Under the pieces are notes generated by a model that searched no databases, was not told the DNA's origin, and saw only the letters and a program-made list of their open reading frames with translations. From NCBI GenBank assembly GCA_024405115.1, contig JAKSPD010000006.1:24275-88274 (forward strand): a stretch of DNA of 64,000 nucleotides, read 5' to 3'. A program made the position numbers and the translations under genes. Each line of letters starts with the position of its first letter. Position 1 is the first letter of the stretch. This document shows positions 2,850-61,076 of this stretch, one piece after another. This DNA comes from Lachnospiraceae bacterium (GTDB lineage: Bacteria; Bacillota; Clostridia; Lachnospirales; Lachnospiraceae).

Positions 2850-3830
2850 ATGAAAAAAGGAAACGGGAAATTTACCATAGGGATGTATGCGGCGTCAATA
2901 GCAGTAACGCTTTTTGTCTTTCTGCTCTGCGTACGTGCGGGAAGCGTGGACGTTCCGTTAAGGGAGCTTTTCAACTCCCCCATAATCATGTCCATTCGTG
3001 TTCCCCGTGTAATCTGTGTTGCACTTTCGGGTGCGGCGCTTTCAGTCTGCGGCGCATCCATGCAGGGACTTCTTAAAAATCCGCTTGCTGACGGTTCAAC
3101 GCTGGGCGTTTCGTCAGGTGCTGCACTGGGCGCCGTTACGGCCATAGCGTTTGGCATAAATTTTCCGGGAGTGCCCTTTGCGGGTACCATGATATTGGCG
3201 GCAGCCGCGGCATTCCTTTCACTTCTGCTTATACTCACACTTTCATATAAGCTTGACCACACGCTTTCAACAAACACCATAATCCTCATGGGTGTCATCT
3301 ATTCAATGTTTGCGTCAAGCATCATGAACATAATTATAACCTTTGCCTCAGACAGGATCAGAAGCATCATGTTCTGGACCATGGGTTCCTTACAGGGAAG
3401 CGGCTACGCCGATGCGGCAGTGCTTTTTGCGGCACTCCTTATCTGCGGGACGGTTCTCCTTCTGCATTCAAACGAACTTAATGCATTTGCGGTAGGTGAG
3501 GATAATGCCTCACATATCGGGGTTGACGTGAAAAAAGTCAAGCTCGCCATACTTATAACAGTTTCCGTGCTCATCGGCGTGTGTGTGAGCATAGGCGGAA
3601 CAATTGGCTTCGTGGGTCTTGTCACACCGCACATGGTAAGGATAGTCGTGGGCCCCAATCACAAAAGGCTTCTTCCCATTTCAATGTTCGCGGGAGCCTG
3701 CTTTTTAATGATTTCGGACCTTATTGCAAGGACACTGCTTAACCCGAAGGAGCTTCCGATAGGCGTCGTTACAAGTATAATCGGATCACTTGTATTTGTT
3801 TACATCTACGCAAGGAGGAAGGGAAAATGA
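2850..3830 (+). CDS. btuC: FecCD-family ABC permease (BtuC-like)
   Basis: 326 aa polytopic membrane protein with typical FecCD motifs (RVPRVICVALSGAALSVCGASMQGLLKNPLADGSTLGVSSGAALG...). Adjacent to the BP and ATPase genes. Confidence 0.85.
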   Translation: MKKGNGKFTIGMYAASIAVTLFVFLLCVRAGSVDVPLRELFNSPIIMSIRVPRVICVALSGAALSVCGASMQGLLKNPLADGSTLGVSSGAALGAVTAIAFGINFPGVPFAGTMILAAAAAFLSLLLILTLSYKLDHTLSTNTIILMGVIYSMFASSIMNIIITFASDRIRSIMFWTMGSLQGSGYADAAVLFAALLICGTVLLLHSNELNAFAVGEDNASHIGVDVKKVKLAILITVSVLIGVCVSIGGTIGFVGLVTPHMVRIVVGPNHKRLLPISMFAGACFLMISDLIARTLLNPKELPIGVVTSIIGSLVFVYIYARRKGK

Positions 3831-4627
3831 TGCTCTGTGTTAAGGACCTGACCGTCAGATACGGCTCATTTACGGCACTTTCCGGTCTTTCCTTCACGGT
3901 GGATGAAGGCGAGTGGCTCATGATTGCGGGGCCAAACGGTGCCGGAAAATCGACCGCGCTTGCTGCAATCGCACAGAGTGCCCCCTATACCGGGGAAGTA
4001 CTTATAAATGGTGAAGACATCAAAAAGCTTAAGCCCGCGGAACGTGCCAGAAGAGTGGGTGTGCTTTCACAGAATAATTTCGTGGGATATGGGTTTTCAG
4101 TTGAGGAAGTTGTGGAGCTGGGACTATACTCGCGTTCACATGACGGAAGCAGGAGCGTGGCCGCAACCGGACGGGAAGAGGGTCATTATGAAAAGAATGA
4201 TATCTCAAATGAAGAACGTCTAACCCAGGCATTAAAACTTGTGGGAATGGAAAGTCAGCGTACCCAGTCGGTGCTCACACTTTCCGGTGGAGAACTGCAG
4301 CGTACGTTCCTGGCTCAGGTCCTCGTACAGGACCCGGATATCCTACTGCTGGATGAGCCCACGAATCACCTGGACCTTATTTATCAGAAACAGATCTTTA
4401 AACTTGTCTCTGAATGGCTTAAGACACCGGGACGTGCGGTGGTATCCGTGGTTCATGACCTGTCCCTGGCAAAAAAATACGGGACAAACGCCTTACTAAT
4501 GGACCACGGTGCATTAAAGGCGCAGGGTCTGGCTTCTGAGATCCTTAATAAAGAAAACCTTGACTGTGTTTATCAGATGGATGTTTATCAGTGGATGCAT
4601 GACCTGCATTCAGTCTGGGAGGATTGA
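3827..4627 (+). CDS. btuD: ABC transporter ATP-binding protein (BtuD/FepC-like)
   Basis: Walker A GPNGAGKST, signature LSGGELQR, Walker B LLLDEPTNHLD. Start overlaps the permease stop (ATGA). Confidence 0.85.
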   Translation: MMLCVKDLTVRYGSFTALSGLSFTVDEGEWLMIAGPNGAGKSTALAAIAQSAPYTGEVLINGEDIKKLKPAERARRVGVLSQNNFVGYGFSVEEVVELGLYSRSHDGSRSVAATGREEGHYEKNDISNEERLTQALKLVGMESQRTQSVLTLSGGELQRTFLAQVLVQDPDILLLDEPTNHLDLIYQKQIFKLVSEWLKTPGRAVVSVVHDLSLAKKYGTNALLMDHGALKAQGLASEILNKENLDCVYQMDVYQWMHDLHSVWED

Positions 4628-4628
4628 A

Positions 4629-5651
4629 ATGGATTACGGAAAACTTGTAAAAGCCCATTGGGACAGCGTGGCAAAACCCCTGGACGGACTTGGGACGCTT
4701 GAACATCTAATAATAAAGATTGGCGCGCTCACGAAAACTGAGGATGTTTCAATTGACCGTCGTATCGTATGCGTCATGTGCGCTGATAACGGCGTGGTTA
4801 AGGAGGGGGTGACCCAGACTGATGCCTCCGTAACGGCAATCCAGGCGGGAAACATCGCGCTTCATAAGACATCGGTATGCCGTATGGCAGCCGTGGCGCA
4901 TGCAGATGTTGTCCCTGTTGACATGGGCATGCTGGTACATGTCCCGGGTGTGGAAGGACCGCATCTAAAAGACGGAACAGCAAATCTTGCAGAAGGTCCT
5001 GCAATGAGCCGTGAGGACTGCCTTGCCGCAATCGAATATGGGCGCAGTCTTGCAAAAAAATATAAGGAAGAGGGCTACGACATAATCATCACCGGAGAGA
5101 TGGGAATCGGAAACACCACAACTTCAAGTGCCGTTGCTTCAGTCCTTCTTGACATGAGCGTTGAAAGCGTCACCGGGCGCGGGGCAGGACTTTCAGATGA
5201 AGGTCTTGTACGGAAGGTTAACGCCATTAACCGCGCAATTGCGGTAAATAAGCCTGACAAAAATGACCCCGTTGATGTCCTTTCAAAGCTTGGCGGCTTT
5301 GACATTGCAGGCATGGCGGGACTTTTCCTTGGAGGGTATGAGGCAAGGATACCCGTAGTGATAGACGGACTCATAAGCTCCATTGCTGCACTCATTGCCG
5401 CAAGGCTTGAGCCGGAATCAAGGAAGGCAATGATTCCGAGCCACTCATCGGCGGAGCCGGCTGCAGAAGCAATCCTTAATGAGATTGGTGAGCCAGCCAT
5501 TTTATATGCAAAGATGAAGCTTGGAGAAGGAACCGGCGCCGTGTGCATGCTGCCGCTTCTTGACATGGCACTTTCCGTTTACCAAAGCGGAGTTGCCTTT
5601 AACGATACGGGGCTTAAACCCTACACCGTCCAGGAAGGGGATAAGAGATGA
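4629..5651 (+). CDS. cobT: Nicotinate-nucleotide--dimethylbenzimidazole phosphoribosyltransferase
   Basis: CobT/DBI_PRT signature AKPLDGLGTLEHLIIKIGALT plus conserved C-terminal KLGEGTGA. Start chosen at ATG 4629, immediately after the upstream stop. The track ORF begins at 4560 inside btuD and that extension is likely spurious. Confidence 0.85.
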   Translation: MDYGKLVKAHWDSVAKPLDGLGTLEHLIIKIGALTKTEDVSIDRRIVCVMCADNGVVKEGVTQTDASVTAIQAGNIALHKTSVCRMAAVAHADVVPVDMGMLVHVPGVEGPHLKDGTANLAEGPAMSREDCLAAIEYGRSLAKKYKEEGYDIIITGEMGIGNTTTSSAVASVLLDMSVESVTGRGAGLSDEGLVRKVNAINRAIAVNKPDKNDPVDVLSKLGGFDIAGMAGLFLGGYEARIPVVIDGLISSIAALIAARLEPESRKAMIPSHSSAEPAAEAILNEIGEPAILYAKMKLGEGTGAVCMLPLLDMALSVYQSGVAFNDTGLKPYTVQEGDKR

Positions 5652-6163
5652 TCATACTTTTTACGGGCGGATCGGCCTGCGGAAAAAGTTCATATGCTGA
5701 AGGCGTATGCGTCAAAATGCCGGAGCCGCGCTATTATATAGCAGCGATGAAACCGTACGGCGCGGAAGGCGAGGCCCGCATAAAGCGCCACCGTGCAATG
5801 CGTGCCGGAAAGGGCTTTGAGACTTACGAATGCTACACCGGGTTAAAGGACCTTAAATTCCCTGAAAGGGGAACCGCGCTTTTGGAGTGCATCTGTAACC
5901 TTACGGCCAATGAGATGTTTGATGATGAGGGAAACTTTCATGATCCATACGATGATGTGATGGCCGGAGTTGAAAACCTGATCAATTCATGCAATGACCT
6001 TGTGATCATAACTAACGACGTGGGTGCGGAGCCCGTCAATTACGGCGAGGCCACGGATTCCTATATCCGCGTTATGGGAAAGATAAATGCGGCAATTGCC
6101 CAAAAAGCGGACAAAGTAATTGAGATGGTCGCCGGGGTTCCCATAGTAATAAAGGACATGTGA
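5648..6163 (+). CDS. cobU: Bifunctional adenosylcobinamide kinase/adenosylcobinamide-phosphate guanylyltransferase
   Basis: 171 aa, P-loop GGSACGKSS. CobU-family length and C-terminal conservation. Overlaps the cobT stop (ATGA). Confidence 0.8.
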   Translation: MIILFTGGSACGKSSYAEGVCVKMPEPRYYIAAMKPYGAEGEARIKRHRAMRAGKGFETYECYTGLKDLKFPERGTALLECICNLTANEMFDDEGNFHDPYDDVMAGVENLINSCNDLVIITNDVGAEPVNYGEATDSYIRVMGKINAAIAQKADKVIEMVAGVPIVIKDM

Positions 6164-7141: not shown

Positions 7142-7422
7142 CATGTAGTGGGAAAGATAAAAAAACGGCAAATGTCCCATTACAAGTAGTGGGAAAAGTG
7201 TCGACAAAGCGAAATGTCCCACTACAAAGTTTCTTAAAAAGGTCAGTTAATAGTGTTAAAATAGTGGGCCAAATGCCATTTGCTCCAAATGTCCCATTAT
7301 AAAAGCATGAATATAAGAGCATTTATTTAATAAACGTAGTGGGACTAACCCCGAAAAAAGCAAATGTCCCATTACAAGTAGTGGGCCAAACCTCAAAAAT
7401 GATAAATATCCCACTACAACAT
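7142..7422. repeat. Structured intergenic repeat element, copy 1: alternating-orientation GGGAC half-sites plus two 26-bp palindromes
   Basis: Half-sites are TAGTGGGAC(AT) (R) and ATGTCCCAYTA (L). Positions: 7145 (R), 7214 (L), 7262 (R), 7289 (L), 7337 (R), 7407 (L). Full palindromes ATGTCCCATTACAAGTAGTGGGA at 7172-7198 and 7364-7390, 192 bp apart. The layout is the same as at 28261-28536. Confidence 0.8.
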
Positions 7423-7472: not shown

Positions 7473-7880
7473 ATGATTTTAGTAACAGGAAGCGAAGCTT
7501 CAGGAAAGAAAACATATGTAAGAAGTCTCGGATTTACGGATGAAGAAATGTCCTACGATCCGTATTCGGACGCGCCTGTAATTCTTAACGTGGAACGCTC
7601 AGTTTTTGAGGCGCTTCGTGCCGCGGAAGAGGAAGGGCTTACCGCCGATGAAAGAGTGGCACGGACTGAAAAGGCAAAAATAAATGAAGCTGCCCTTTTA
7701 TTCGAGCAGCTTAAGGATAAAAAAGTTGTTACGATTAATGAAGTGGGAAGCGGTGTCATCCCCGCAAACCGTGCGGAACGCATCGGCCGTGAGGCGTCAG
7801 GACGTCTTTCAGTGCTTCTGGCAAAAGAGGCGGAGCAGGTGGTGCGCATGGTATGCGGCATTCCGATAATTCTTAAATAA
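7473..7880 (+). CDS. CobU-like P-loop protein (short paralog of adenosylcobinamide kinase/guanylyltransferase)
   Basis: 135 aa. P-loop GSEASGKKT. The C-terminal INEVGSGVIPANRAERIGREASGRLSVLLAKEAEQVVRMVCGIPIILK aligns with the C-terminus of the cobU product at 5648-6163. It lacks about 40 central residues. RBS GGGAGGG lies upstream. Confidence 0.55.
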   Translation: MILVTGSEASGKKTYVRSLGFTDEEMSYDPYSDAPVILNVERSVFEALRAAEEEGLTADERVARTEKAKINEAALLFEQLKDKKVVTINEVGSGVIPANRAERIGREASGRLSVLLAKEAEQVVRMVCGIPIILK

Positions 7881-11482: not shown

Positions 11483-13263
11483 CAGAGCTTTTCCCCTGCT
11501 AAAGCTTTCTTTTTCTTAACGCTCTTTACTATAGCGGTAATTATGATTATAAGGAAGACACCGGCGACTGCCGCTGCGGGAATGAACCATTTCTTTTTGT
11601 AGAAGGGCGGTTCAGGTTCGGGTTGTGGCTCAGGGATGTACTCAAAAATTTCATCGGCGGGAGCCTCATAAACATAGAAGGTTACTGTCTTTTCCCCGGT
11701 CGTTATCTCACCGTATTCGTCCTCATAGGAAACCAGCACGTTGACCGTACCGTCATCCTCAGTTGCCGCTATTCCTTTCAGCATCGTGTCAACGTTTGCG
11801 GATTCTCCCGGCTTGATGTTTCCAAGATAAATCTCTGAGTTATTGATTGAATCCGCCTCGAAGCGGACGGTGGTGTTGTAGAGGATGGTCTTTCCGGTGT
11901 TGTTGACGGGGAACATGACGTTGATCTCGCTGCCCACTTCAATGCTTTCAGGAAGAAGCTCAATGTTTCCGATTCCGAATTTTGATATGGCCTTGACGGG
12001 AATGTCGATGGAAACCTTTTCCTCAGCATTTTTGAATTCAGGAGAATCATACTTTTCGCTGATGTTCACTCCGTATGCACCCGGGTCGATGCCGGCCTTG
12101 GCGGAAAAATACATGCGGAGTTCTGCTGACTCACCGCCCTTCAGGGAGTTGACGACAGTTGAACTTGAACCTGTCTGTGTGGTAAATGCAGGAGAGTTAT
12201 TGACCTTTTCGGATTCAAATGTGAAAAGGATGTTTGAGGCCTCCACGTCGGCGGAAGCATTTTTCATTGTGATCACAAGCTCAAAATCCTGACCCGCATA
12301 GATCACCTCCGGATTTGTACGGAAGCTGTCCACTACTATACGTGCCTTGACACGGTCGTTTGCATTGAAGGCACTTGAAGTGCTGGGCTCTTCCTTTTCC
12401 TTTCCCTTTATATGTACAAAGAACTGCTGTTCGGATGTGAGGATTTCGCCCTCGCTCGACTCCCTGTAGGTGATCTTTACCTTGATGGGGTAGTAGCCGC
12501 TGTAGGTATCCTTTCTGATTGCAAAGCTGTAGGGAAGCTGTACGGTCTCACCGCTCTGGATAAGGTCAAAGTGACGGTCGTAATTGGTTTCGTTTATCTC
12601 AAACGGGAAATCTGTTGATGACTGTTCGCATATCATGGACGCCTTTACGTCCTGGGCACCGATTGTGCCGGAATTGCGGAGGTTGATTGCAAAGTCCATC
12701 ACGTTCGGATATACGCCGTAAGGTGTGAGCTGTCCCTCACCAAGTTCAAATGTAACGCGGCTCTGGGGAGCTGTGGTCTCATGTTCACCGCCACCGGAAG
12801 ATTTTTTTACATAGATCTTGATGTATGTGGGATATCCGCTGTATTCGGGTTCATTACTTATGAACACAGGAACTTTATAGTAGCCTTCCGTAATGTCACG
12901 GCGAAGCCTCATCGTAACGCTTGCCTGATGTGTGCCTTTCCTCAGTTTTCCTATCTTTACAACTGTGTTTTTTTCGGACGGAGTTTCAAACGGGAAGATT
13001 CCATACAGCACCTCATCATCAAAATACTGGTCATCATATGCACTTCCAACCTGAATTCCTGCATAATACTCTAAATCTGATGAAGCATCATTTTCCGTGA
13101 CCTCGTACTGGAAGGTCACTGACATGTTCTGCCCCATATTTCCTGTCTGTATGGATTTCTGCGTTATTTCAATGGCAAATGCCGAAAAAGAGCACGCTGC
13201 CACGATCACGGCCGTGTAAAGGGAAGCCATTAATAGCTTTGCGTTTTTAGTCATCCTTTGCAA
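11482..13263 (-). CDS. Membrane-anchored extracellular repeat protein (CARDB/DUF11-like beta-sandwich repeats) associated with the MacB-type ABC system
   Basis: 593 aa. Signal peptide (AACSFSAFA). Repeated roughly 100-aa beta-rich modules. PEPQPEPEPP linker, then a C-terminal TM anchor and KKKK tail. Coupled to the flanking permease and ATPase genes. Confidence 0.5.
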   Translation of the reverse strand: MQRMTKNAKLLMASLYTAVIVAACSFSAFAIEITQKSIQTGNMGQNMSVTFQYEVTENDASSDLEYYAGIQVGSAYDDQYFDDEVLYGIFPFETPSEKNTVVKIGKLRKGTHQASVTMRLRRDITEGYYKVPVFISNEPEYSGYPTYIKIYVKKSSGGGEHETTAPQSRVTFELGEGQLTPYGVYPNVMDFAINLRNSGTIGAQDVKASMICEQSSTDFPFEINETNYDRHFDLIQSGETVQLPYSFAIRKDTYSGYYPIKVKITYRESSEGEILTSEQQFFVHIKGKEKEEPSTSSAFNANDRVKARIVVDSFRTNPEVIYAGQDFELVITMKNASADVEASNILFTFESEKVNNSPAFTTQTGSSSTVVNSLKGGESAELRMYFSAKAGIDPGAYGVNISEKYDSPEFKNAEEKVSIDIPVKAISKFGIGNIELLPESIEVGSEINVMFPVNNTGKTILYNTTVRFEADSINNSEIYLGNIKPGESANVDTMLKGIAATEDDGTVNVLVSYEDEYGEITTGEKTVTFYVYEAPADEIFEYIPEPQPEPEPPFYKKKWFIPAAAVAGVFLIIIITAIVKSVKKKKALAGEKL

Positions 13264-24230: not shown

Positions 24231-24749
24231 ATGGGCAAAAAGACAAAGTGGCTTTGTGTGACGGCCATCGGCATCGCGCTTTTTGTGGTGCTTTCGATGT
24301 GCGTCAGGGTGCCTGTATTCGAGAATTATTATATCTGCCTCGGATACGTGGCCATGGCTGTGTATTGTTATTCCTTTGGCGTGGTAAGCGGTACCGCGGT
24401 CGGGACGCAGGGCGTCATTCTTTATTGCGTCTTAACAAGCGGCCTGCGCGGCATGCCCGGTTGGACGGCAGGAAACCTCGTGATCGGCATCGTGCTCGGG
24501 CTTACGTTTAAGGCCACGAAGAAGATGAAAAGCGCAACCCTTAAATTCGCAATCAATGCTGTGGCAGTAATTCTTTCAGTGGCGGTGGGCATCCTCGGGG
24601 TAAAGTCCATGACGGAATGCGTGCTCTATGCCCAGCCGTTTTTAGTTCGTGTCGCAAAAAATGTTTATGCGGCTGTCGCCGATGTGGTGACTCTCCTCGT
24701 GAGCCTTCCCGTCTGCATGAACCTCGACAGGGTATTTAAGAAGGGATGA
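24231..24749 (+). CDS. Small 5-6 TM membrane protein, possibly an ECF-transporter S component
   Basis: 172 aa from ATG 24231 (RBS GGGAG). Size and topology are typical of ECF S components. The longer track ORF from 24114 lacks an RBS. Confidence 0.4.
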   Translation: MGKKTKWLCVTAIGIALFVVLSMCVRVPVFENYYICLGYVAMAVYCYSFGVVSGTAVGTQGVILYCVLTSGLRGMPGWTAGNLVIGIVLGLTFKATKKMKSATLKFAINAVAVILSVAVGILGVKSMTECVLYAQPFLVRVAKNVYAAVADVVTLLVSLPVCMNLDRVFKKG

Positions 24750-24754
24750 AAAAC

Positions 24755-24832
24755 CGAATAGGGGAAGTGAATAGGGGAAGTGAATAGATGAGTTGAATAG
24801 GGGAAGTGAATAGGGGAAGTGAATAGAGGAAC
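24755..24832. repeat. 13-bp tandem repeat x6 (GAATAGGGGAAGT)
   Basis: Six head-to-tail copies: four perfect, two variant (GAATAGATGAGTT, GAATAGAGGAACC). They begin 6 nt after the stop codon at 24749. Confidence 0.85.
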
Positions 24833-25309
24833 CGTCATGGGCAGGTGCGAGAACACCTGCCTCTGGCAAAACATCAAATCTTGTAGGAAACAGTTGTCAG
24901 AAGCGCATTTCATACAAGAAAATTGTAGGAAACTATGTCAATAAGAAAGGTTTCATACAATTTTTAAATTAGAAATTGTATGAAATTCACCTACACGCAT
25001 AAAAAAACTACAAGAGTATCGAACAAAACAACTATAAATAGTGCATTTTTTGTATGAAATACGTCTATTCAATAAAACAACTACAAAATTTGATCAACAG
25101 AGAATTTTACCACTCAACTGATATAACATGGAAACTGGTATTATGGTCTGTTTTCACGGTTTTTTCTAAAAATAAGAATATTTTTCTGTGGATTGCATAT
25201 TGAAAATGGCTTTTAAAGTTAGTAGGCTATATGCGTGAAGGCCGGAAGCTTAATGCCGCAACTTGTGGAGGAGGACTTCTGGTCGACAACAGGAAAGGAA
25301 GTATTTACA

Positions 25310-27319: not shown

Positions 27320-28168
27320 ATGGAGGCATCGCGTAAAGCGGTGCCTTTTATGGGAGATGACATGATCTTATCAGTAGATACAAACATCATAAGAAATGCC
27401 TTTGGCGATGAAAAAGCATTTGAAGTCTTAATGGAAAGCGGCTTTACCGGTGTTGATTTTTCCTTTCATGAAAGACCCGGAGGAGAAGCATTTGACCCTC
27501 TTAAGACAAGGAGGCTACTAGATAATAACGGTCTTACATGTCTGCAGACACACGGTCCTGACTGTTTTGACGCAAAACTTAGGATGGATGAATCCGAACC
27601 CACATATAAGGCTGCGGCTGATGCGATCAGCTGGACACATATCCTTGGCGCAAGGGTCATGGCACTTCATTCCCTTTACATTCCGTGGGTTTCAAAGGAA
27701 GAGGAGTGGGATATAAATATCCGTTTCTTTAAGTCATTTGAACCGTATCTGATTAAAAACGACGTGAAGATAGGGGTTGAGAACCTGCCATTACAGGTCA
27801 CGGACACACCGGAGGACATAAACAGGTTCATAGGAGAGCTTAACAGTCCCTGCTATGGCGCACTTTTGGATACGGGACACGGCCGTATTTCCGGTATTGA
27901 GCCACATGATTACATAAGGCGCCTTAAACCGGGAAGCCTGATTGGAATACATGTCCAGGACCAGCACGGTCAAAAAGATGAACACATCATCCCTTACATG
28001 GGAGAGACAGACTGGGCGGCCCTCATTGATGCCCTCCGCGAGTCCGGCTATCAGGGTCCCCTGTCCCTCGAAATCGTCCATTTCATGGAAAAAGTGCCGA
28101 AGGAACTGCTTCCCGCGGCACATCAATACGCAGCATCCGTCGGCAAATACCTGATCGGTCTGCTCTGA
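27320..28168 (+). CDS. Sugar phosphate isomerase/epimerase family protein (xylose-isomerase-like TIM barrel)
   Basis: 282 aa. AP_endonuc_2-type metal-binding pattern (…HGPD…, ALHS…, GVENLP…, LDTGHG…, LSLEIVHF). Confidence 0.65.
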   Translation: MEASRKAVPFMGDDMILSVDTNIIRNAFGDEKAFEVLMESGFTGVDFSFHERPGGEAFDPLKTRRLLDNNGLTCLQTHGPDCFDAKLRMDESEPTYKAAADAISWTHILGARVMALHSLYIPWVSKEEEWDINIRFFKSFEPYLIKNDVKIGVENLPLQVTDTPEDINRFIGELNSPCYGALLDTGHGRISGIEPHDYIRRLKPGSLIGIHVQDQHGQKDEHIIPYMGETDWAALIDALRESGYQGPLSLEIVHFMEKVPKELLPAAHQYAASVGKYLIGLL

Positions 28169-28260
28169 AACGCTCTGAAGTACTTTGAAAAGTTTGAAAT
28201 GCATCTGAAAAAGGGACTGCCGTATGAAACGGCGGTCCCTTTCATCGGAGAAGGCAGCAG

Positions 28261-28536
28261 GATAGTGGGACATTTTCCAAAAAGGCTTAATGTCCCATTA
28301 CAAATAGTGGGACATTAAAGAATATTGTTTTCTGTCCCACTATATGACGGCCTGTTTTTCGCTGTTTTTCCTTTAAAAATAGTGGGACATATTACGAAAG
28401 AAGAAAATGTCCCACTATAAATACACTAAAAACAGGTTAAATTTGACCGCTTGATAGTGGGACATTTGAAGAAAACGGCGGAAGTCCCATTACAAGTAGT
28501 GGGACTATCGTGAAAAGAGTAAAATGTCCCACTACA
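28261..28536. repeat. Structured intergenic repeat element, copy 2 (same architecture as 7142-7422)
   Basis: Half-sites at 28263 (R), 28333 (L), 28380 (R), 28407 (L), 28455 (R), 28524 (L). Full palindromes ATGTCCCATTACAAATAGTGGGACAT at 28290-28315 and AAGTCCCATTACAAGTAGTGGGACTA at 28482-28507, 192 bp apart. Confidence 0.8.
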
Positions 28537-28690
28537 GGATGCAGTGGCATCGTTCTCATCTGCAGCGCTTTGATCCGGTGTTATCCGATAAAAAAGTCGA
28601 TAAAAAAGGCGCATGACAGCATACAGACATGACTGTGCTTTTTCTTTTATCTGAGGTATACTTATCGGAAAGATGAAAGGAGAAATGTCT

Positions 28691-29881
28691 ATGAAAGCAA
28701 TAATCAATGCAAAGCTTTGTTTCCCGGAGGAGATCCGGGAGGGAAGTATTTTAATAGAAGGCAGGAAGATCATTGCTGCCGGCAATGTTGAAATTCCGGA
28801 AGGAACGGAGATCATTGATGCCAAAAGCCTTTATGCCGGCCCCGGTCTTGTGGACGAACATGTGCATGGATATCAGCAGTGCGGACGTTTTGAAAATATA
28901 ATTGATAACCCGTTGGGCGTTGCGGAAAACCACCTTTATCACGGTACTACTTCGATCACTCCTAGTGCGGGATATACCAATACATTGGAACAGTATCTTT
29001 TTATGATAGGAGAATGCAGAAAGGGTGTCGACGATGAAAACTCATCGATCGTCGGAATGCACTTTGAGGGCCCCTTTGTCAGCAGTAAGTTCGGTGCCCA
29101 TTCGGAGCTTGCGACTCCTTATTCCAGAGAGTATTGTGAAAAGATCTTTGAGGCGGCGAAGGGGATGACCGTTCACTCCACCTATGCTCCCGAGATCCCC
29201 GCTGCTCCGGAATATGAACGGATTCTTACCGAAAACGGCATTATTCATGATATAGGTCATACCGGTGCCGGCCCGGCGGACATTGAGAGAGCGGTCGCAA
29301 ACGGAGCCCGGATCGTTACGCATCTTTATGATGCCATGGGCAACTACCGCGGTGTGGAAGCAGCCTCCTTTGTGACGGGTGATCCGCAGGACTGCGTATC
29401 CGACATTGTTCTGGGAACACCGGGTCTTTATTATGAGCTCATCTGCGATTCCATCGGAGCGCATGTGACGAAATATTCCATCCGGAAAGCATATCGCGCC
29501 GCCGGAGAGGATTATATTATACTGATCACCGACTCCACTGCGCATAAGGACATTCCGGTGACGGAAGAAGCCAGAAAAACCGTATTTGATCAATTTGGGG
29601 TTTACGAGGTCGACGATCTGAATTTTAATGATCTCGGAGAGCTTTCCGGAAGTCGCCTGACACTGGATAAGGGCTGCCGCAACTTCATGAAAGCCACCGG
29701 CTGTGATGTGAGGGTGGCCTTTAAGTGCGCAGCAACAAACCCTGCGAAGGCACTTTACTTAAATGACAGGATCGGCTCCATTGAAGCCGGGCATGATGCC
29801 GATATTCTTCTTGTCGATGATGATTTCTATGTACACCGTCTCTTCTTTAAGGGAAAAGAGATAGAAGAGATCAGGCACTGA
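28691..29881 (+). CDS. NagA-family amidohydrolase (N-acetylglucosamine-6-phosphate deacetylase-like), paralog A
   Basis: Motifs GLVDEHVHG, HFEGPF, THLYDAMG and ELICDS, as in B. subtilis-type NagA. ATG 28691 has RBS AAGGAG. About 50% identical to the paralog at 38122-39303. Confidence 0.6.
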   Translation: MKAIINAKLCFPEEIREGSILIEGRKIIAAGNVEIPEGTEIIDAKSLYAGPGLVDEHVHGYQQCGRFENIIDNPLGVAENHLYHGTTSITPSAGYTNTLEQYLFMIGECRKGVDDENSSIVGMHFEGPFVSSKFGAHSELATPYSREYCEKIFEAAKGMTVHSTYAPEIPAAPEYERILTENGIIHDIGHTGAGPADIERAVANGARIVTHLYDAMGNYRGVEAASFVTGDPQDCVSDIVLGTPGLYYELICDSIGAHVTKYSIRKAYRAAGEDYIILITDSTAHKDIPVTEEARKTVFDQFGVYEVDDLNFNDLGELSGSRLTLDKGCRNFMKATGCDVRVAFKCAATNPAKALYLNDRIGSIEAGHDADILLVDDDFYVHRLFFKGKEIEEIRH

Positions 29882-29997
29882 TCCGGAAATTTCGTATTTG
29901 AAGGTTTTTCCTATCAGGCCTTTGGCATCGGTCCCCGGAGCGATCCGGGGATCGGACGCTGCCTGTGGCATAACGGTTGTTTTCCAACGCTGCCGGT

Positions 29998-36021: not shown

Positions 36022-37029
36022 ATGGAAACAAAGAATACAGTTCTTGATATAGAAAATCTTTCCGTTGAATTCCATGTGGACGGAGAGATCGCAAAATCGG
36101 TCACGGATGTGACAATAAAGCTTCATGAAGGCACTACACTCGGCCTTGTGGGAGAGACCGGTGCCGGAAAGACAACGACGGCACTTGCGGCACTGAATCT
36201 GATCCAGTGTCCTCCCGGAGTTATTAAAGCGGATAAGATAGAAGTATGCGGAAATGACATGCTTCATGCAAAGCAGCATGAGCTCGAGAAGATCCGCGGA
36301 AAAGACATTTCCATGATCTTCCAGGATCCCATGACCAGCCTTAACCCCGTATTTGATGTGGGAACCCAGATTCAGGAATCCATTCTTCTTCACGAAAAGT
36401 TAAGCCGTGAAGAGGCCTGGGAGAAGGCAATGCAGATGCTTGAGCTTGTTGGGATCCCGAGAGAAAGAGGACATGAGTATCCCCACCAGTTCTCCGGCGG
36501 AATGAAGCAGAGAGTTGTCATTGCCATTTCTCTTGCATGTACTCCCAAGGTGCTTATCGCCGATGAGCCCACAACGGCACTTGACGTTACCATTCAGGCA
36601 CAGGTTCTTGAGATGATGAAGGAACTCCGTGACAAGTACGGAACGGCAATGATCATGATTACGCATGACCTTGGAATCGTAGCGGAAAGCTGTGACTATG
36701 TTGCAGTAATGTATGCCGGCAGGATCATTGAATACGGCACACTTGACGAGATCTTCAACAACACGCGCCATCCGTATACAGAGGGACTCTTCAACTCACT
36801 TCCGAACATCCATAACCGTGTCGGAAAGCTTAAGCCCATCCCGGGAATGATGCCTGACCCGAGGTCAATCCCCGAAGGATGCGCATTTGCAGACAGGTGT
36901 CCTTACGCTACAGATGAGTGCAGAAGGACACTTCCGGAAACATTAAAGGTTAACGATGACCACGTGGTTGCATGTCTTCGTTACAATGAGCCTGATTTCA
37001 TGATTGAAAGGAGCAGGAAAAATGGGTGA
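36022..37029 (+). CDS. ABC transporter ATP-binding protein (DppD/OppD-like)
   Basis: Walker A GETGAGKTT, signature FSGGMKQR, Walker B LIADEPTTALD, and a C-terminal oligopeptide-ABC C-domain with CxxC motifs. Confidence 0.9.
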   Translation: METKNTVLDIENLSVEFHVDGEIAKSVTDVTIKLHEGTTLGLVGETGAGKTTTALAALNLIQCPPGVIKADKIEVCGNDMLHAKQHELEKIRGKDISMIFQDPMTSLNPVFDVGTQIQESILLHEKLSREEAWEKAMQMLELVGIPRERGHEYPHQFSGGMKQRVVIAISLACTPKVLIADEPTTALDVTIQAQVLEMMKELRDKYGTAMIMITHDLGIVAESCDYVAVMYAGRIIEYGTLDEIFNNTRHPYTEGLFNSLPNIHNRVGKLKPIPGMMPDPRSIPEGCAFADRCPYATDECRRTLPETLKVNDDHVVACLRYNEPDFMIERSRKNG

Positions 37030-37984
37030 GGTTTTACTTGAGGTAAAAAATCTGCAGAAGTATTTCTCCACACCCCGTGGAATGCTCCATGCTGTAGATA
37101 ACGTTTCATTTACAATTGAAAAAGGAAAGACACTTGGCGTGGTTGGTGAGTCAGGCTGTGGAAAGACCACATGTGGACGTACCATCCTCCGTCTTACCGA
37201 GCCCACAGGGGGACAGGTTCTCTTTGAGGGTAAGGACGTTTCAAAGTATAAGGGAAGGGAGCTTGCACACTTAAGACGTGACATGCAGATCATCTTCCAG
37301 GATCCGTTCTCATCACTGGATCCCAGAATGTCCGTCAGCCAGATCATCGCTGAGCCCATCAAGTACAATAAGCTCCTTCATGGTAAGGAGGCCATTGACG
37401 CAAGGGTACTTGAACTTATGGACACAGTTGGCCTTTCAAGGAGAATGGTTAACTCATATCCCCATGAACTGGACGGCGGAAGAAGACAGAGAGTCGGAAT
37501 CGCAAGGGCGCTTGCACTTAACCCGAAGTTCATCGTATGTGACGAGCCCGTTTCCGCACTTGATGTTTCCATCCAGGCGCAGATCCTTAACCTTCTTGAC
37601 GAGCTCCAGGATTCACTGGGACTTACATACATGTTCATTACACATGACCTTGCAGTAGTTAATCACTTTGCTGACGACATTGCGGTCATGTACCTTGGAC
37701 AGCTTGTAGAGAAGGCACCAGCAGAGGAGCTCTTTGACAACCCGCTTCATCCTTACACGAAGGCCCTTCTTTCTGCAATCCCTGTACCGGATACGCATGC
37801 GAAGAACAAGAGGATCGTGCTGAAGGGTGAGATCACTTCCCCCATCAACCCCGGAGAGGAGTGCCGTTTCGCAAAGAGATGTCTTTATGCGGATGACTGC
37901 TGTAAGGGAAAAGGCCCCGAGCTTGTTGAGGTCAAGCCCGGACACTTTGTAGCCTGCCATCACTGCGGCATTGCAAATCAGTAA
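37022..37984 (+). CDS. ABC transporter ATP-binding protein (DppF/OppF-like)
   Basis: Start at ATG 37022 (RBS GGAGCAGGAAAA). Walker A GESGCGKTT, signature LDGGRRQR, Walker B IVCDEPVSALD. Confidence 0.9.
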   Translation: MGEVLLEVKNLQKYFSTPRGMLHAVDNVSFTIEKGKTLGVVGESGCGKTTCGRTILRLTEPTGGQVLFEGKDVSKYKGRELAHLRRDMQIIFQDPFSSLDPRMSVSQIIAEPIKYNKLLHGKEAIDARVLELMDTVGLSRRMVNSYPHELDGGRRQRVGIARALALNPKFIVCDEPVSALDVSIQAQILNLLDELQDSLGLTYMFITHDLAVVNHFADDIAVMYLGQLVEKAPAEELFDNPLHPYTKALLSAIPVPDTHAKNKRIVLKGEITSPINPGEECRFAKRCLYADDCCKGKGPELVEVKPGHFVACHHCGIANQ

Positions 37985-41795: not shown

Positions 41796-42017
41796 TGTTT
41801 TTTGGCAAAAAAATAGTTCTTTTTCAATGATTTTGCCGTTTTTGATTCCTGTTTGGTAAAAAATCGGCGGTAGACGTGGTATTTTGCAGGCTTTTAAAGA
41901 AATTCCGAAAATAGCGGTAAGGATCAGCCAATCCTTCAATATTTTTGCCATTTGTATCTGGAAACTGGCAAAAAAACGAAGAAACGACGGAATTTTTGCC
42001 GGAGAGGGAGCTTATAT

Positions 42018-44264: not shown

Positions 44265-45494
44265 ATGATAAGGGAAAATCAGGGAAAACTTCATTATGGC
44301 TGGGTGATTGCAGTCTGCTGCATACTTTTTGTGTGCGGTTCCTCGCTTGTTTCCACTGGAATGTCCACAAACTTAAACGCAATGAGGCAGCATCTGGGAT
44401 TTACGAACACCCAGACTTCGATGGTGCTTACGCTTCGGAGCATCGTGGGTTTCATTGCCGCGGTTTTTTCTGCAAGGTATTATGAAAAGCTGGGGCTTCG
44501 AAACGGCATCTGCCTTGCAATGCTTTCAGGCGTGCTTGCTTTTTTACTGTTTATAATTGGCGGGAAAAACATATATATCGTGTACATCGGCGGAGCCGTT
44601 TCCGGAGTATGCTATACATTTGGAATGATGCTTCCCGCATCGATGCTCATAAAGAACTGGTTCAATAAGTCAAGGGGCTTTGCACTGGCGATAGCCTCAT
44701 GCGGAACGGCAGCAGTATCCGTAATCTTTGCCCCGCTTACCCAGAGCATGGTCGATAATCATGGAATAATGTCTGCATTCATAATGGAGGGAGGATACCT
44801 TCTTCTGATGGCGGTCCTTTTATTCTTCCTTATAAAGGACAGACCTGAAATGATGGGCCTTGAGCCTTATGGTGGGAAGGACTGGGTTCCGGAGACAAAG
44901 GGGAGGGAACCGAAGGAGGCAACAAGCCTTACCAGAGGCTGGTACTATGCATATATTTTTGCGATAGTGCTCATAGGAATAGTGGCGAGCCCTGCAAATG
45001 CAAACCACACGAATAACTTTGTGACGGCAGGCCTTAAGCCCATGGATGTCGCAAAGGCAATTTCACTTTACGGGATACTTGTCACCGTTTCAAAGATCCT
45101 GTTCGGAAAGGCAGTCGACAGGGTCGGGACGTTTGCCACGACCATGATTTACGGGCTTAATTTCGTGATAGCACTTTCGCTGGAGGCATGCGTGAACTTT
45201 AACCCGAGGAACTGGTTCATGATCCTGTCACTTGCAATCTATGCCTTTGGCACGCTCGTGACCTCACTCGGATACCCGAACTGGACCGTTGACCTTGATT
45301 CATCTCATTACAATAAGACCTTAAGCCGCTGCCAGACCGGATATCAGTTTGGCGCCATCATAGGCTCCTATGTTCCCGGCGTCATCGCGGACGCGACCGG
45401 AAGCTATGCGGGAGCATATTTCTTCTTTGCCGCCTGCATCGCAATTGCGGTAATCATAGTGGCAGGGGCATATAACTCGCAGAAGAAGAAATGA
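44265..45494 (+). CDS. MFS transporter (OFA-like)
   Basis: 409 aa, 12 TM with a central cytoplasmic loop. Confidence 0.75.
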   Translation: MIRENQGKLHYGWVIAVCCILFVCGSSLVSTGMSTNLNAMRQHLGFTNTQTSMVLTLRSIVGFIAAVFSARYYEKLGLRNGICLAMLSGVLAFLLFIIGGKNIYIVYIGGAVSGVCYTFGMMLPASMLIKNWFNKSRGFALAIASCGTAAVSVIFAPLTQSMVDNHGIMSAFIMEGGYLLLMAVLLFFLIKDRPEMMGLEPYGGKDWVPETKGREPKEATSLTRGWYYAYIFAIVLIGIVASPANANHTNNFVTAGLKPMDVAKAISLYGILVTVSKILFGKAVDRVGTFATTMIYGLNFVIALSLEACVNFNPRNWFMILSLAIYAFGTLVTSLGYPNWTVDLDSSHYNKTLSRCQTGYQFGAIIGSYVPGVIADATGSYAGAYFFFAACIAIAVIIVAGAYNSQKKK

Positions 45495-45509: not shown

Positions 45510-45720
45510 ATTTGTAATAAACAGCTTAGCAGGCGTTATTTATTACAAAGGAATTGTAATTATTGATGGTCAGCGGGATGTTTTATTACAATTATTGTCT
45601 GTGGGTTTTGTAATAAAGTGCTGTCACGTGAGGCAGTTATTACAATTTAACCTCAGAAAAATGGTCATTTTGAAGAAAAACTTGTAATAATTCAATGCCA
45701 GAAGCAGAAAAGTTACAAGA
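45510..45720. repeat. Intergenic array of 8 alternating-orientation TTGTAATAA/TTATTACAA motifs
   Basis: Copies at about 45512, 45540, 45554, 45584, 45609, 45638, 45682 and 45712, with alternating orientation and 14-44 bp spacing. A CACGTG-centred imperfect palindrome sits at 45620-45636. Confidence 0.6.
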
Positions 45721-45832
45721 TTTGATCAAATCAAAAAATGGCGATGCCGCAATAAAAAAGGGATGCCGTACTACTGAATTCTTACAGTAACTTTCAGTAA
45801 TGCAGCATCCCTTTAAACTTTTGATACCATGT

Positions 45833-46414
45833 TCATGCCAGTTTTACTGTTTCCGGCCTTCCGTTTTCATTTACCGCCTCGTATTCAATGAAGCCGATTG
45901 TTTTCATGACGCCGTTCCAGCGTTCACGCATGTCAGGCTCATAGAAATCGGGACGGAACCCCAGTCCATAGTAAATCATTATCGCCGGGATACGGAATTC
46001 ATCAGTAAAGAGGCGCATCCTCCTGATGCCGTGTGCAATCGCATAGTTTACGCATGCGGCACATACGGCATGCCCGCCGCCCAGGTTTCTTGCGTTTCTC
46101 CTTGTTCCCACCATGTGGAGATAAGCCTCCATGGGATCATCTGTCATCTGGACTGCAGCCGTGGAGATAAGACGTCCGTAGGAAGCCATCACAAAAAGGA
46201 TTCCGTCATCCGGAATCTTTTTATCGCCAAGCATTACTGACCCGTAAAGCTTTTCATCATAATAGCGGTTTAACTGCTCGCAGGCGGAAGCCCACTGCTT
46301 TGAAAACTCACGCTTTGTGAAAAGCTTTGAAGACGAATCGATAATCGAAAATCCGTCTTTCAGGATTACCTCGGCAGGTTTCAGGTTTTCACATACCATT
46401 TTGATCTGCGACAT
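45833..46414 (-). CDS. GNAT-family N-acetyltransferase
   Basis: 193 aa from ATG 46414 (RBS GGAG). Acetyl-CoA-binding motif RRNARNLGGGHAV. The track ORF extends to 46675 only by reading through the tandem repeats. Confidence 0.7.
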   Translation of the reverse strand: MSQIKMVCENLKPAEVILKDGFSIIDSSSKLFTKREFSKQWASACEQLNRYYDEKLYGSVMLGDKKIPDDGILFVMASYGRLISTAAVQMTDDPMEAYLHMVGTRRNARNLGGGHAVCAACVNYAIAHGIRRMRLFTDEFRIPAIMIYYGLGFRPDFYEPDMRERWNGVMKTIGFIEYEAVNENGRPETVKLA

Positions 46415-46540
46415 AAAGTCTCCACTTACCTTTATAAAAGAATTATAAACGGGCCATGCAATAATTTCAACAGGTCTGTTCACGAAACATGTGCCGAGGC
46501 ATATGTAACCTTTGACTTGGACCGGAAGCCGTGACCGACA

Positions 46541-46670
46541 AAGAATGAAATAATCGGGACATTCAGCCTTAAACAAATTGAAATAATCGGGAAATACACT
46601 ATAATTTATATTGAAATAATCGGGGAAAATGCTATAATTTATAATGAAATAATCGGAAAGGATGGCACGA
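46541..46670 (+). repeat. About 33-bp tandem direct repeat x4 (core TGAAATAATCGG) with embedded TATAAT hexamers, upstream of the AAA-ATPase gene
   Basis: Cores at 46544, 46578, 46611 and 46644, spaced 34/33/33 bp. Copies 2 and 3 include CTATAATTTAT. The repeats end at the ATPase start codon. Confidence 0.75.
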
Positions 46671-48002
46671 TGCATGTTCAGACGTAAGATATATGAAAGC
46701 CTTCTTGATTGGAAAAAACATTACAACGGCAAGTATGCCTGCCTGATAGAAGGGGCAAGGCGTGTCGGAAAAACAAGTATAGTGGAAGAATTTGCAAAAA
46801 ACGAATATAAGTCATATATACTGATTGATTTTTCAAAGGCATCAAAAGAAATCCTGGAAAGTTTTGACAGCATCGGTGATTTAAACTATTTCTTTTTGAA
46901 GCTGCAGACCGAGGCGGGAATAAATCTGTACACAAGAGAATCTGTAATAATATTTGATGAAGTTCAGCTATTCCCCAAAGCAAGGCAGGCGATTAAACAT
47001 CTTGTAGCTGATGGGAGATATGATTATATTGAGACGGGATCACTGATTTCAATAAGGAAAAACACCAAGGATATCTTAATACCTTCGGAAGAGCATAGGA
47101 TTTCAATGTATCCGATGGATTATGAAGAGTTTACATGGGCACTTGGCAGTTCCCTTGATCCGTTGAGGAATTTTTTTGACTCGGGGCTTCAGCTCGGTGA
47201 GACTGTAAACAGAAATCAGATGCGACGTTACAGACTCTATCTTGCGGTGGGGGGCATGCCTCAGGCAGTAGAGGCTTATGTTGAACACAGGAGTTTTGAT
47301 GAGATAGATGACATAAAAAGAGAAATAATTGCACTTTATCATGAAGATCTGTATAAGCTGGATCCTACAGGAAGGCTTTCAATGGCTTATGATGCTATTC
47401 CGGGTCAGTTGGCAGGAAAGAGGAAAAGGTTTATTTTGAGTGCCGCTACGGGTAAGGAGAAGGAAGAAAAAGATATTGAAAGAATAAATGATTTTGCGGA
47501 TTCGAAGATGGTCCTGCCCTGCTATAATGTAACAAAGCCTGCAGTGTCACTTTCGCAGACAAAAGATATTGAAACATACAAGCTATATCTTTCAGATGTC
47601 GGGCTGTTTACAACAATGCTTTTTAATGATTCAGATGACAGTCATGAAGACATATATAAAAAGCTTCTCAGCGATAAACTGGATGCAGACCTTGGTTATT
47701 TATATGAGAACGCCGTGGCTCAGGAAATTATGTCAAAAGGCAGAAAACTGTATTATCATACGTGGCAGAAAGAAGGCAGCACGCATTCTTATGAGGTTGA
47801 CTTCCTGATAGCAAAGAACAGAAAAATTATCCCAATCGAAGTCAAATCATCAAAAGTCAGGCCGCATAAGTCCATGGATGAGTTCTGCAGGAAATATTCA
47901 AAAGATGTTGGTGAAAGATATATTCTTTCAAAAAAGGATGTATCAAAAGATGGTATGCTGCAGTTGAAGCCATTATATATGGTGCAGTATGTTGTTGAGT
48001 AA
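46662..48002 (+). CDS. AAA+ ATPase with DUF4143 C-terminal domain (COG1373-type ATP-binding protein)
   Basis: Walker A GARRVGKTS, Walker B IIFDEVQ. The C-terminal half resembles DUF4143. ATG 46674 is an alternative start. Confidence 0.75.
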   Translation: MARCMFRRKIYESLLDWKKHYNGKYACLIEGARRVGKTSIVEEFAKNEYKSYILIDFSKASKEILESFDSIGDLNYFFLKLQTEAGINLYTRESVIIFDEVQLFPKARQAIKHLVADGRYDYIETGSLISIRKNTKDILIPSEEHRISMYPMDYEEFTWALGSSLDPLRNFFDSGLQLGETVNRNQMRRYRLYLAVGGMPQAVEAYVEHRSFDEIDDIKREIIALYHEDLYKLDPTGRLSMAYDAIPGQLAGKRKRFILSAATGKEKEEKDIERINDFADSKMVLPCYNVTKPAVSLSQTKDIETYKLYLSDVGLFTTMLFNDSDDSHEDIYKKLLSDKLDADLGYLYENAVAQEIMSKGRKLYYHTWQKEGSTHSYEVDFLIAKNRKIIPIEVKSSKVRPHKSMDEFCRKYSKDVGERYILSKKDVSKDGMLQLKPLYMVQYVVE

Positions 48003-61075: not shown

Positions 61076-61076
61076 A

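Follow-up and report, generated by a model that had tools for sequence, protein, structure and literature searches.

Layout of the Dyad-Repeat Array

We analyzed a 64-kb stretch of contig JAKSPD010000006.1 from the metagenome-assembled genome of an uncultured gut bacterium of the Lachnospiraceae (hereafter the window), a metabolic stretch that represents the analyzed portion of this genome and holds two copies of an array of short inverted repeats (dyads). Copy 2 is flanked by a xylose-isomerase-like TIM-barrel gene and, downstream, by a gene coding for a NagA-like amidohydrolase. The amidohydrolase gene starts at 28691, 157 bp past the last site of the array, in agreement with the ∼150 bp given in a preliminary description of the locus. 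The neighbors of copy 1 are cobS and a truncated CobU-like gene encoding a 135-aa protein (NCBI MCQ2400941.1). This copy is located downstream of an adenosylcobalamin (AdoCbl) riboswitch and a btuFCD-cobT-cobU-cobS cluster, and it appears to sit within a co-directional cob operon.

Mapping of the half-sites resolved each copy into five dyad modules (Table 1). The array is non-coding, and its unit in copy 2 is a 38-bp convergent inverted repeat with the consensus TAGTGGGAC-N20-GTCCCAYTA. The half-sites of copy 2 lie at 28263, 28305, 28380, 28455 and 28497 on the + strand and at 28292, 28334, 28409, 28484 and 28526 on the - strand. The offsets of the modules are 0/42/117/192/234 in copy 2 vs 0/41/116/191/233 in copy 1, and the sole difference in layout is the first module of copy 1, which is 1 bp shorter. 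The shared architecture and the shared half-site offsets of the preliminary description were confirmed, apart from this single base pair. The two full palindromes reported there are also real and are found in copy 1 as well. They are formed at the junctions of neighboring modules, where a right arm, a 4-bp linker and the next left arm meet, and in both copies they are direct repeats 192 bp apart. Pairing as TAGTGGG-N23/24-CCCAYTA covers 10/10 half-sites, whereas the junction palindromes account for 4/10, and the unit is therefore better described as a 38-bp convergent dyad.

The ends of copy 2 form 11-bp terminal inverted repeats (TAGTGGGACAT, the left arm of u1, and ATGTCCCACTA, the right arm of u5), and the array is directly bordered on both sides by the pentanucleotide CAGGA. 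The dyad centers are roughly in helical phase, at 0, 42, 117, 192 and 234 bp in the window and at 0, 41, 115, 189 and 230 bp in the corresponding array of a sister species (contig L029). The non-arm positions are A-rich on the + strand, with 41–49% A and 22–31% T.

Table 1. Coordinates of the dyad arrays and associated features. Positions refer to the window unless another contig is named.
Feature	Sequence	Position	Strand	Description
Copy 2 array	window	28263–28534	+	five 38-bp dyad modules, linkers 4, 37, 37, 4 bp; half-site mapping
Module u1	window	28263–28300	+	TAGTGGGACAT-N16-ATGTCCCATTA; single-strand fold -16.3 kcal/mol
Module u2	window	28305–28342	+	
Module u3	window	28380–28417	+	central module
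Module u4	window	28455–28492	+	
Module u5	window	28497–28534	+	
Junction palindrome 1	window	28290–28315	.	ATGTCCCATTACAAATAGTGGGACAT; u1 right arm + 4 bp + u2 left arm
Junction palindrome 2	window	28482–28507	.	AAGTCCCATTACAAGTAGTGGGACTA; u4 right arm + 4 bp + u5 left arm
CAGGA	window	28258–28262	+	5-bp direct repeat directly left of copy 2; resembles a target-site duplication
CAGGA	window	28535–28539	+	5-bp direct repeat directly right of copy 2; resembles a target-site duplication
Hairpin after TIM-barrel gene	window	28212–28245	.	14-bp stem, -29.8 kcal/mol, z = -6; neighbor of the array, not part of it
Copy 1 array	window	7146–7416	+	between cobS and the 135-aa CobU-like gene; modules 7146–7182, 7187–7224, 7262–7299, 7337–7374, 7379–7416; half-sites at 7146, 7187, 7262, 7337, 7379 (+) and 7174, 7216, 7291, 7366, 7408 (-)
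Array with other arms	window	41802–42003	+	arms TGGCAAAAA/TTTTTGCCA; two 37–38-bp modules and a lone arm
Array with other arms	window	45511–45718	+	four modules TTGTAATAA-N19–21-TTATTACAA, linkers 3, 14, 34 bp
Sister-species array at cobS spacer	L029	5525–5791		modules 37 bp, arms TAGTGCC...TGCACTA
Sister-species array at cobS spacer	L030	4861–5127		modules 37 bp, arms TAGTGCC...TGCACTA
Array with other arms	L028	608–823		arms TTCCACAA; four modules
Array with other arms	L028	5274–5650		arms GGATGTGAAA and GGAGGGGAAA; seven modules, symmetric linkers 14-14-25-25-13-13
Array with other arms	L029	12166–12330		arms GCCCCTCAAA; same locus as the following array
Array with other arms	L030	about 11590–11850		arms TGACCG...CGCGGTCA; six modules, central A-run in each

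Statistical Support and Database Searches

The array is real and non-random. In the 64 kb, TAGTGGG occurs at 15 sites vs 4.8 ± 2.4 expected, and 15/15 are within the two arrays. With up to one mismatch the 9-mer gave 22 matches vs 8.2 ± 3.2 expected, a count that was reached in 0/100 shuffles, and no array of this type was found in 40 dinucleotide shuffles of the window.

The array is also not previously catalogued. At the gathering threshold, Rfam gave no match to the array and a single match in the window, the AdoCbl riboswitch at 1524–1644; matches at E values up to 1 were at chance level. A blastn search of copy 2 against plasmid and phage collections gave no match, and neither the paired-module pattern nor the species-independent core pattern was found in viral contigs. 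In the 185,579 species genomes of GTDB, the paired-module pattern matched one chance-level site, in an actinomycete. The literature on the motif and on repetitive extragenic palindromic (REP)-like elements in Firmicutes contained no description of such arrays.

Metagenome contigs gave eight matches to the paired-module pattern, with a build unrelated to that of the window arrays. Two of the matching contigs (L013 and L018) flank organelle-like rRNA. Two others, both JGI metagenome contigs (L012, 1–140; L014, 1360–1460), carry 39-bp perfect palindromes, TAGTGGGAAATAATATGGAATCCATATTATTTCCCACTA, with a 42-bp period; the 7-mer and the period that they share with the window array are probably a coincidence of the search pattern.

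Conservation of Arms and Lengths

Between copy 1 and copy 2 conservation is limited to the arms and the lengths. The core TAGTGGG/CCCAYTA is kept in 20/20 arms of the two copies, and the modules of 38 or 37 bp and the 4-37-37-4 linkers are kept to the base despite the divergence of the spacers. In a comparison of copy 1, copy 2 and the L029 array, spacers and linkers were 46–56% identical, and the spacers of corresponding modules were no more similar to each other than those of non-corresponding ones.

Base pairing is restricted to the outer 7–11 bp of a module, and the 16–24 nt between the arms are non-complementary. The single-strand folds were weak (copy 1 modules -6.9 kcal/mol, L029 modules -8.5 kcal/mol), with loops of ∼21 nt. 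No compensatory base changes supporting the helices were found within the family. In copy 1, positions 8–9 of the left arms have decayed to AA, AA, CC, AC and CC with no compensating change opposite, while the right arms retain ATGTCCC/AAATGTCCCAYTAC. The switch from G:C to C:G at arm position 6, between the window and L029 arrays, suits a dyadic protein site equally well.

Judged from these alignments, selection acts on the arms and the lengths and not on the spacers, and the arms are not maintained as base pairs. Because the arms and their exact spacing are selected and the sequence of the spacers is free, a protein probably reads the array as double-stranded DNA; a stereospecific protein–DNA complex needs fixed geometry, fixed arms and free spacers, whereas a set of RNA hairpins does not.

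Occurrence in Related Genomes

In contigs of the same species copy 1 was nearly unchanged, and several of these contigs begin within it. A sister species, with a CobU-like protein of 87% identity, has a five-module array in the spacer between cobS and the cobU-like gene, with the same 4-37-37-4 linkers and other arms (Table 1, L029 and L030). Only GTAGTG/CACTAC is common to the window and L029 arm types. The array starts 5 bp after the cobS stop codon in L029 and L030 vs 113 bp in the window. In two further species (L031 and L035) cobS and the short cobU-like gene are kept, and the spacers of 85 and 114 bp are without an array. The spacer is thus filled in the window, L029 and L030 and short in L031 and L035, with flanks too diverged to give exact boundaries. 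Orthology between the modules of copy 1 and L029 was considered and rejected, as spacer likeness was no better for corresponding modules; a claim of concerted arm evolution is therefore not justified, and independent insertion of related elements is equally possible. Since the spacers lack module-by-module homology, vertical descent with concerted arm change and independent insertion give the same picture.

Copy 2 was found in another lineage (L038) with modules u1 and u5 only. This variant corresponds to a 192-bp deletion between the two junction palindromes and matches exactly the product of an exchange between them. It lies in a block of ∼1.95 kb (window ∼27980–29929) that contains the 3' end of the TIM-barrel gene, copy 2 and the NagA-like gene. 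The block is 98–100% identical to the window, whereas the neighboring genes are about 82% identical, which indicates, from sequence identity, a recent transfer between species. The amidohydrolase (84–89% identical) has a different neighborhood in each related species examined, and in other species the TIM-barrel gene is followed by a toxin–antitoxin pair instead of copy 2.

Contigs L020 (13344–13444), L021 and L023, from another species, end in a degenerate TAGTGGGAAA module that is preceded by ATCGGCGCCAGCC. This module lies downstream of an EamA gene and is apparently a decayed or variable representative of the same family.

Dyad Arrays With Other Arms

A scan for clustered dyads revealed at least six further arrays, with modules of 35–41 bp, arms of 7–12 bp, spacers of 17–21 bp and arm sequences of their own (Table 1). 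The first scan was limited to gaps of 18–29 bp and was therefore biased to this geometry; a second, unrestricted scan returned the same module size. A control of 50 kb of E. coli sequence had no such array. Many modules have an A- or T-run at their center. Some of these arrays are located between convergent genes or directly past terminators. The array at 45511–45718 lies between convergent MFS (44265–45494, +) and GNAT (45833–46675, -) genes and directly precedes a hairpin at about 45748–45812, and the seven-module array of L028 is located past a terminator and is convergent with the next gene.

The L029 and L030 arrays with other arms occupy the same intergenic locus of near-identical genomes and have almost nothing in common; the locus measures 325 bp in L029 vs 690 bp of unrelated modules in L030. 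Such regions therefore turn over quickly. Together, the array described here and these others make up a wider class of intergenic dyad arrays of the lineage, each family of which has its own arms.

Comparison With Known Repeat Elements

The array was assigned to none of the known families with which we compared it, namely bacterial interspersed mosaic elements (BIMEs) and REPINs, the sopC centromere, res sites and RpiR operators. Like BIMEs and REPINs, the window arrays are extragenic and lie in operons, after terminators and between convergent genes. They have short palindromic arms in alternating orientation and fixed-length linkers, their sequence is lineage-specific, with several families per genome and presence or absence between related species, and GTAG/CTAC stands at the outer arm edge in about half of the window modules and in 5/5 L029 modules. 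The REP sequences of Enterobacteria (REP clusters and BIMEs) and Pseudomonas (REPINs) are each a nearly complete hairpin with a small loop, and they occur in tens to hundreds of copies per genome together with a gene for a REP-associated tyrosine transposase (RAYT, a Y1 transposase). The window unit, in contrast, pairs only at the outer 7–11 bp of 38, and other arm families here are without GTAG. The 64 kb contain two copies, and no Y1_Tnp/RAYT match was found among the ∼47 open reading frames (ORFs) scanned in the window.

Several features recall miniature inverted-repeat transposable elements (MITEs). The array measures ∼270 bp, has 11-bp terminal inverted repeats and, at copy 2, a 5-bp flanking direct repeat; there is putative insertion polymorphism between species, and several families follow one design. 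Tn3-derived inverted-repeat miniature elements have 38-bp inverted repeats and 5-bp duplications. The arm sequence is, however, unrelated to the inverted repeats of the Tn3 family, the internal sites alternate in orientation rather than facing inward from the ends, the window copies are saturated with differences outside the arms rather than near-identical, and no autonomous partner is known.

The preliminary description had also considered an attachment or partition-like site, and the array does resemble sopC of the F plasmid. This site is bound by SopB and has a 43-bp period and arms TGGGACC-N2-GGTCCCA (PMC3177203). Both are regularly spaced inverted-repeat arrays (42 bp for adjacent modules here vs 43 bp) with the same arm hexamer, TGGGAC-N20-GTCCCA in our case. 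In sopC only the arms matter for binding, and one helix-turn-helix dimer occupies a compact 16-bp site with arms 2 bp apart (PMC3177203), whereas the arms are 20 bp apart here. Moreover, sopC consists of 12 near-identical direct repeats on a plasmid beside sopAB; the window array is chromosomal, its spacers have diverged and it has no par genes. The scanned ORFs included no integrase, transposase, recombinase or resolvase, ParA/ParB, RpiR or Y1 transposase and no plasmid or phage gene. Together with the negative plasmid and phage searches this does not support an attachment or partition function.

Interpretation of the Array

Of the readings of the motif that remain, recognition by a protein appears to be the best one. 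We favor the reading that the array is a lineage-specific extragenic dyad-repeat element, similar to a BIME or a MITE, that is prone to insertion and recombination and is read by a dimeric protein, and we give this reading a probability of roughly 40%. In its behavior the array seems closer to a repeat or a mobile element than to a gene switch. We prefer this reading over an operator because presence and module number are polymorphic and copy 2 has a duplication-like flank, because several arm families share one design, because no linked gene was found, and because the arrays are found in operons, after terminators and between convergent genes.

From the pattern of conservation we infer that the arms (7–11 bp) may be docking sites for a sequence-specific protein that reads double-stranded DNA. 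One dimer would bind per module, the five dimers would lie in a fixed arrangement along approximately one face of the helix, and the A-rich center of each module may aid bending. The element would be non-autonomous and would be, or have been, mobile. Its cognate protein may be a transposase, a recombinase or a domesticated relative of these, with its gene at another place in the genome.

Several observations weigh against the favored reading. The scanned ORFs yielded no candidate for the binding protein and no transposase or recombinase. The strictly alternating arm orientation is, to our knowledge, the layout of no known transposon end. The two copies are about 50% identical outside the arms, unlike the products of a recent MITE burst, and the duplication-like flank is present at one of three arrays, namely copy 2; neither copy 1 nor the array of L029 has one. 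That no site of the motif lies outside the arrays (p about 0.01) suits a host factor equally well as a selfish element. Finally, the near-absence of paired modules from 185,579 genomes argues against a high-copy family, unless the species is missing from, or masked in, the collection.

A bolder version, which we consider rather doubtful, holds that the arrays are a previously undescribed class of chromosomal elements in Clostridia: modular platforms of 35–41-bp dyads, each family of which would be assembled by its own co-evolving paralogue of a new DNA-binding or recombinase family. Such arrays would be a Gram-positive counterpart of the REP-RAYT pair (for RAYT, see PMC5581495) or a new multi-dimer nucleoprotein machine. 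If the reading of the arrays is right, uncultured gut Clostridia carry uncatalogued families of rigid dyad arrays without a match in Rfam, in plasmids, in phages or in the 185,579 genomes, and the identity of the reader protein could reveal a new element–enzyme pair analogous to REP-RAYT. If the array is an ordinary lineage-specific MITE, its value is mainly one of annotation. The arrays break metagenome assemblies, vary in module number and presence between strains and sit in operons. They matter to the quality of metagenome-assembled genomes and to strain typing, and they may influence operon polarity or genome plasticity.

Alternative Explanations

Co-regulation of the two downstream genes had been proposed in the preliminary description. 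In this explanation, a dimeric or tetrameric transcription factor, possibly a sugar-phosphate sensor of the RpiR/HexR type, would bind the five dyads of a host operator array and control the cobU-like and nagA-like genes. The two copies do have the same orientation, each ahead of a + strand gene, the motif has no site in the remainder of the window, and the gene downstream of copy 2 is NagA-like. The core GTAGT...ACTAC, common to the window and L029 arrays, and the arms TGTAAT/ATTACA of the array at 45.5 kb resemble the half-sites TGTAGT/ACTACA of RccR and HexR, members of the RpiR family, which also tolerate a long spacer with a central A-run (PMC11014249). We take this as a resemblance and no more: the core half-sites are ∼30 bp apart here vs 3–16 bp in RccR sites (PMC11014249), and RccR sites are single and not arrays of five. 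No RpiR gene was found in the window and no other candidate regulator was found nearby, except for an AraC-type gene, which is not linked to the array in L038. No promoter-like site overlaps copy 2, and the one that overlaps copy 1, itself apparently inside a co-directional operon, is at chance level. Two species keep cobS and the orthologous cobU-like gene with a spacer of 85–114 bp and no array, a two-module copy 2 exists in L038, and arrays of the same build lie between convergent genes (45511–45718; L028 5274–5650), where there is no promoter to control. Co-regulation is thus not supported, and we consider an operator array unlikely.

We regard it as unlikely to a similar degree that the array is a host architectural site without mobility, that is, a nucleoprotein platform acting as a transcription roadblock, an insulator or a topology site. 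The model for such a site are the BIMEs of E. coli, which are bound by gyrase and integration host factor. The persistence of the exact geometry while the sequence diverged to saturation, the approximate helical phase of the dyad centers in the window and L029, and the location of the arrays within operons, after terminators and between convergent genes would all fit. On the other hand, a separate reader would be required for each arm family, and the arrays are dispensable and hypervariable between close relatives, as seen at the L029/L030 locus.

The junction palindromes (GTCCCAYTA-CAAG-TAGTGGGAC, with 9–11-bp inverted arms and a 4–8-bp center) could be crossover sites of a tyrosine or serine recombinase, with the other arms as accessory sites as in res or cer. 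The res sites of serine resolvases have two or three subsites, their dimer sites are inverted repeats of ∼25–34 bp at critically fixed distances, and the arm sequence co-varies with the cognate enzyme. The window array likewise has several dyads at fixed distances, a precise architecture that recalls the res synaptosome. Its junctions are direct repeats in both copies, contigs break at them, and the L038 variant is the exact product of junction 1 and junction 2, a direct-site deletion with the crossover inside GTCCCATTACAA. Slippage or homologous exchange between direct repeats of 12–26 bp, however, explains this deletion equally well. In addition, the array has five 38-bp modules, no recombinase gene lies adjacent to it or was found in the window, variants with inverted orientation were seen in 0/7 same-species contigs, and dedicated recombinases would be needed for too many arm families per genome. 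Site-specific recombination as the function of the array is therefore distinctly improbable.

The least probable of these explanations is a structured RNA, in which the transcribed array folds into five hairpins, or into junction hairpins with 4-nt loops, and stabilizes or processes the flanking mRNAs or acts as a sponge for an RNA-binding protein. Fold prediction gave a very stable structure for either strand (-113 and -107 kcal/mol, z about -10.6), but such stability follows trivially from ten mutually complementary arms. The C/T variation of the right arms is compatible with G-U pairs on the + strand, and that strand is A-rich at non-arm positions; in the sister arrays, however, the A-rich strand does not consistently coincide with the sense strand of the neighboring genes. 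The one-sided decay of the copy 1 stems and the lack of compensatory changes within the family speak against helices, as do loops of 16–24 nt that are free in sequence yet fixed in length. The linkers are fixed as well, and hairpins need neither. No Rfam family was found at the gathering threshold.

Further candidates were rejected: a sigma-54 enhancer (no -24/-12 promoter downstream of either copy), DnaA, MraZ or AbrB boxes (only parts of the words match, and the L029 variant has lost these matches), a coding repeat (the window periods of 42 and 75 bp are divisible by 3, but those of L029 are 41 and 74 bp), a global fold-back (non-arm identity to the array's own reverse complement of only 0.41–0.43 vs about 0.30 expected), and a CRISPR or type III toxin–antitoxin (ToxI-like) array (inverted repeats, irregular linkers, and no cas or toxN-like gene).

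Neighboring Features and Other Repeats in the Window

The hairpin upstream of copy 2 had been described as weak, whereas its predicted stem and folding energy are those of a strong hairpin (Table 1). Its stem includes GGGAC/GTCCC, and its T run is better on the - strand than on the + strand. In the predicted fold it looks like a putative bidirectional terminator. It would stop a transcript that runs leftward through the array; promoter prediction gave none on the - strand. The 73-aa and 249-aa neighbors are membrane proteins.

For the truncated CobU-like gene next to copy 1 (7473–7880, 135 aa), the match to the CobU profile is confined to the C-terminal 70 residues. The gene is preceded by a full-length cobU (5648–6163) and by cobS, and its conservation extends to at least four related species. 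The array at 41802–42003 is located upstream of a GDSL-lipase gene whose listed TTG start (41952) falls within the array, and the true start is therefore probably later. In L028, another nest of repeats at 3700–3930, upstream of the orthologous amidohydrolase gene, has about five direct copies of CTGCGTGAAACGTCAATT followed by inverted GTGAAAC/GTTTCAC arms.

Other repeats were observed in the window. Around seven tandem copies of a 13-nt unit, GAATAGGGGAAGT, are present at 24743–24843, directly after a gene for the S-component of an energy-coupling factor (ECF) transporter. Four direct repeats with a 33-bp period (ATAATCG...) are located at 46550–46660 in the 5' part of the GNAT gene on the - strand, where they overlap the start of an AAA_14/DUF4143 gene. 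Two paralogous oligopeptide-type ATP-binding cassette (ABC) transporter operons share DNA stretches that are 60–74% identical (36290–37610 and 60360–61700); their SBP_bac_5 genes are at 32459 and 56652.

The gapped word ATCGGCGNNAGCC gave 19 matches with up to one mismatch vs 1.0 expected, and ATCGGCG occurred 26 times vs 6. The 10 exact sites of the gapped word (670, 6876, 7130, 7941, 10384, 11653, 14157, 15151, 24671 and 43076) include one 3 bp upstream of copy 1, and 9/10 lie within the first 25 kb. The word is found inside genes, on both strands and in different frames. Of the related contigs, L029 and L030 are also rich in it, and L031 and L035 have few copies. A function like that of uptake, Chi or REP words is conceivable.

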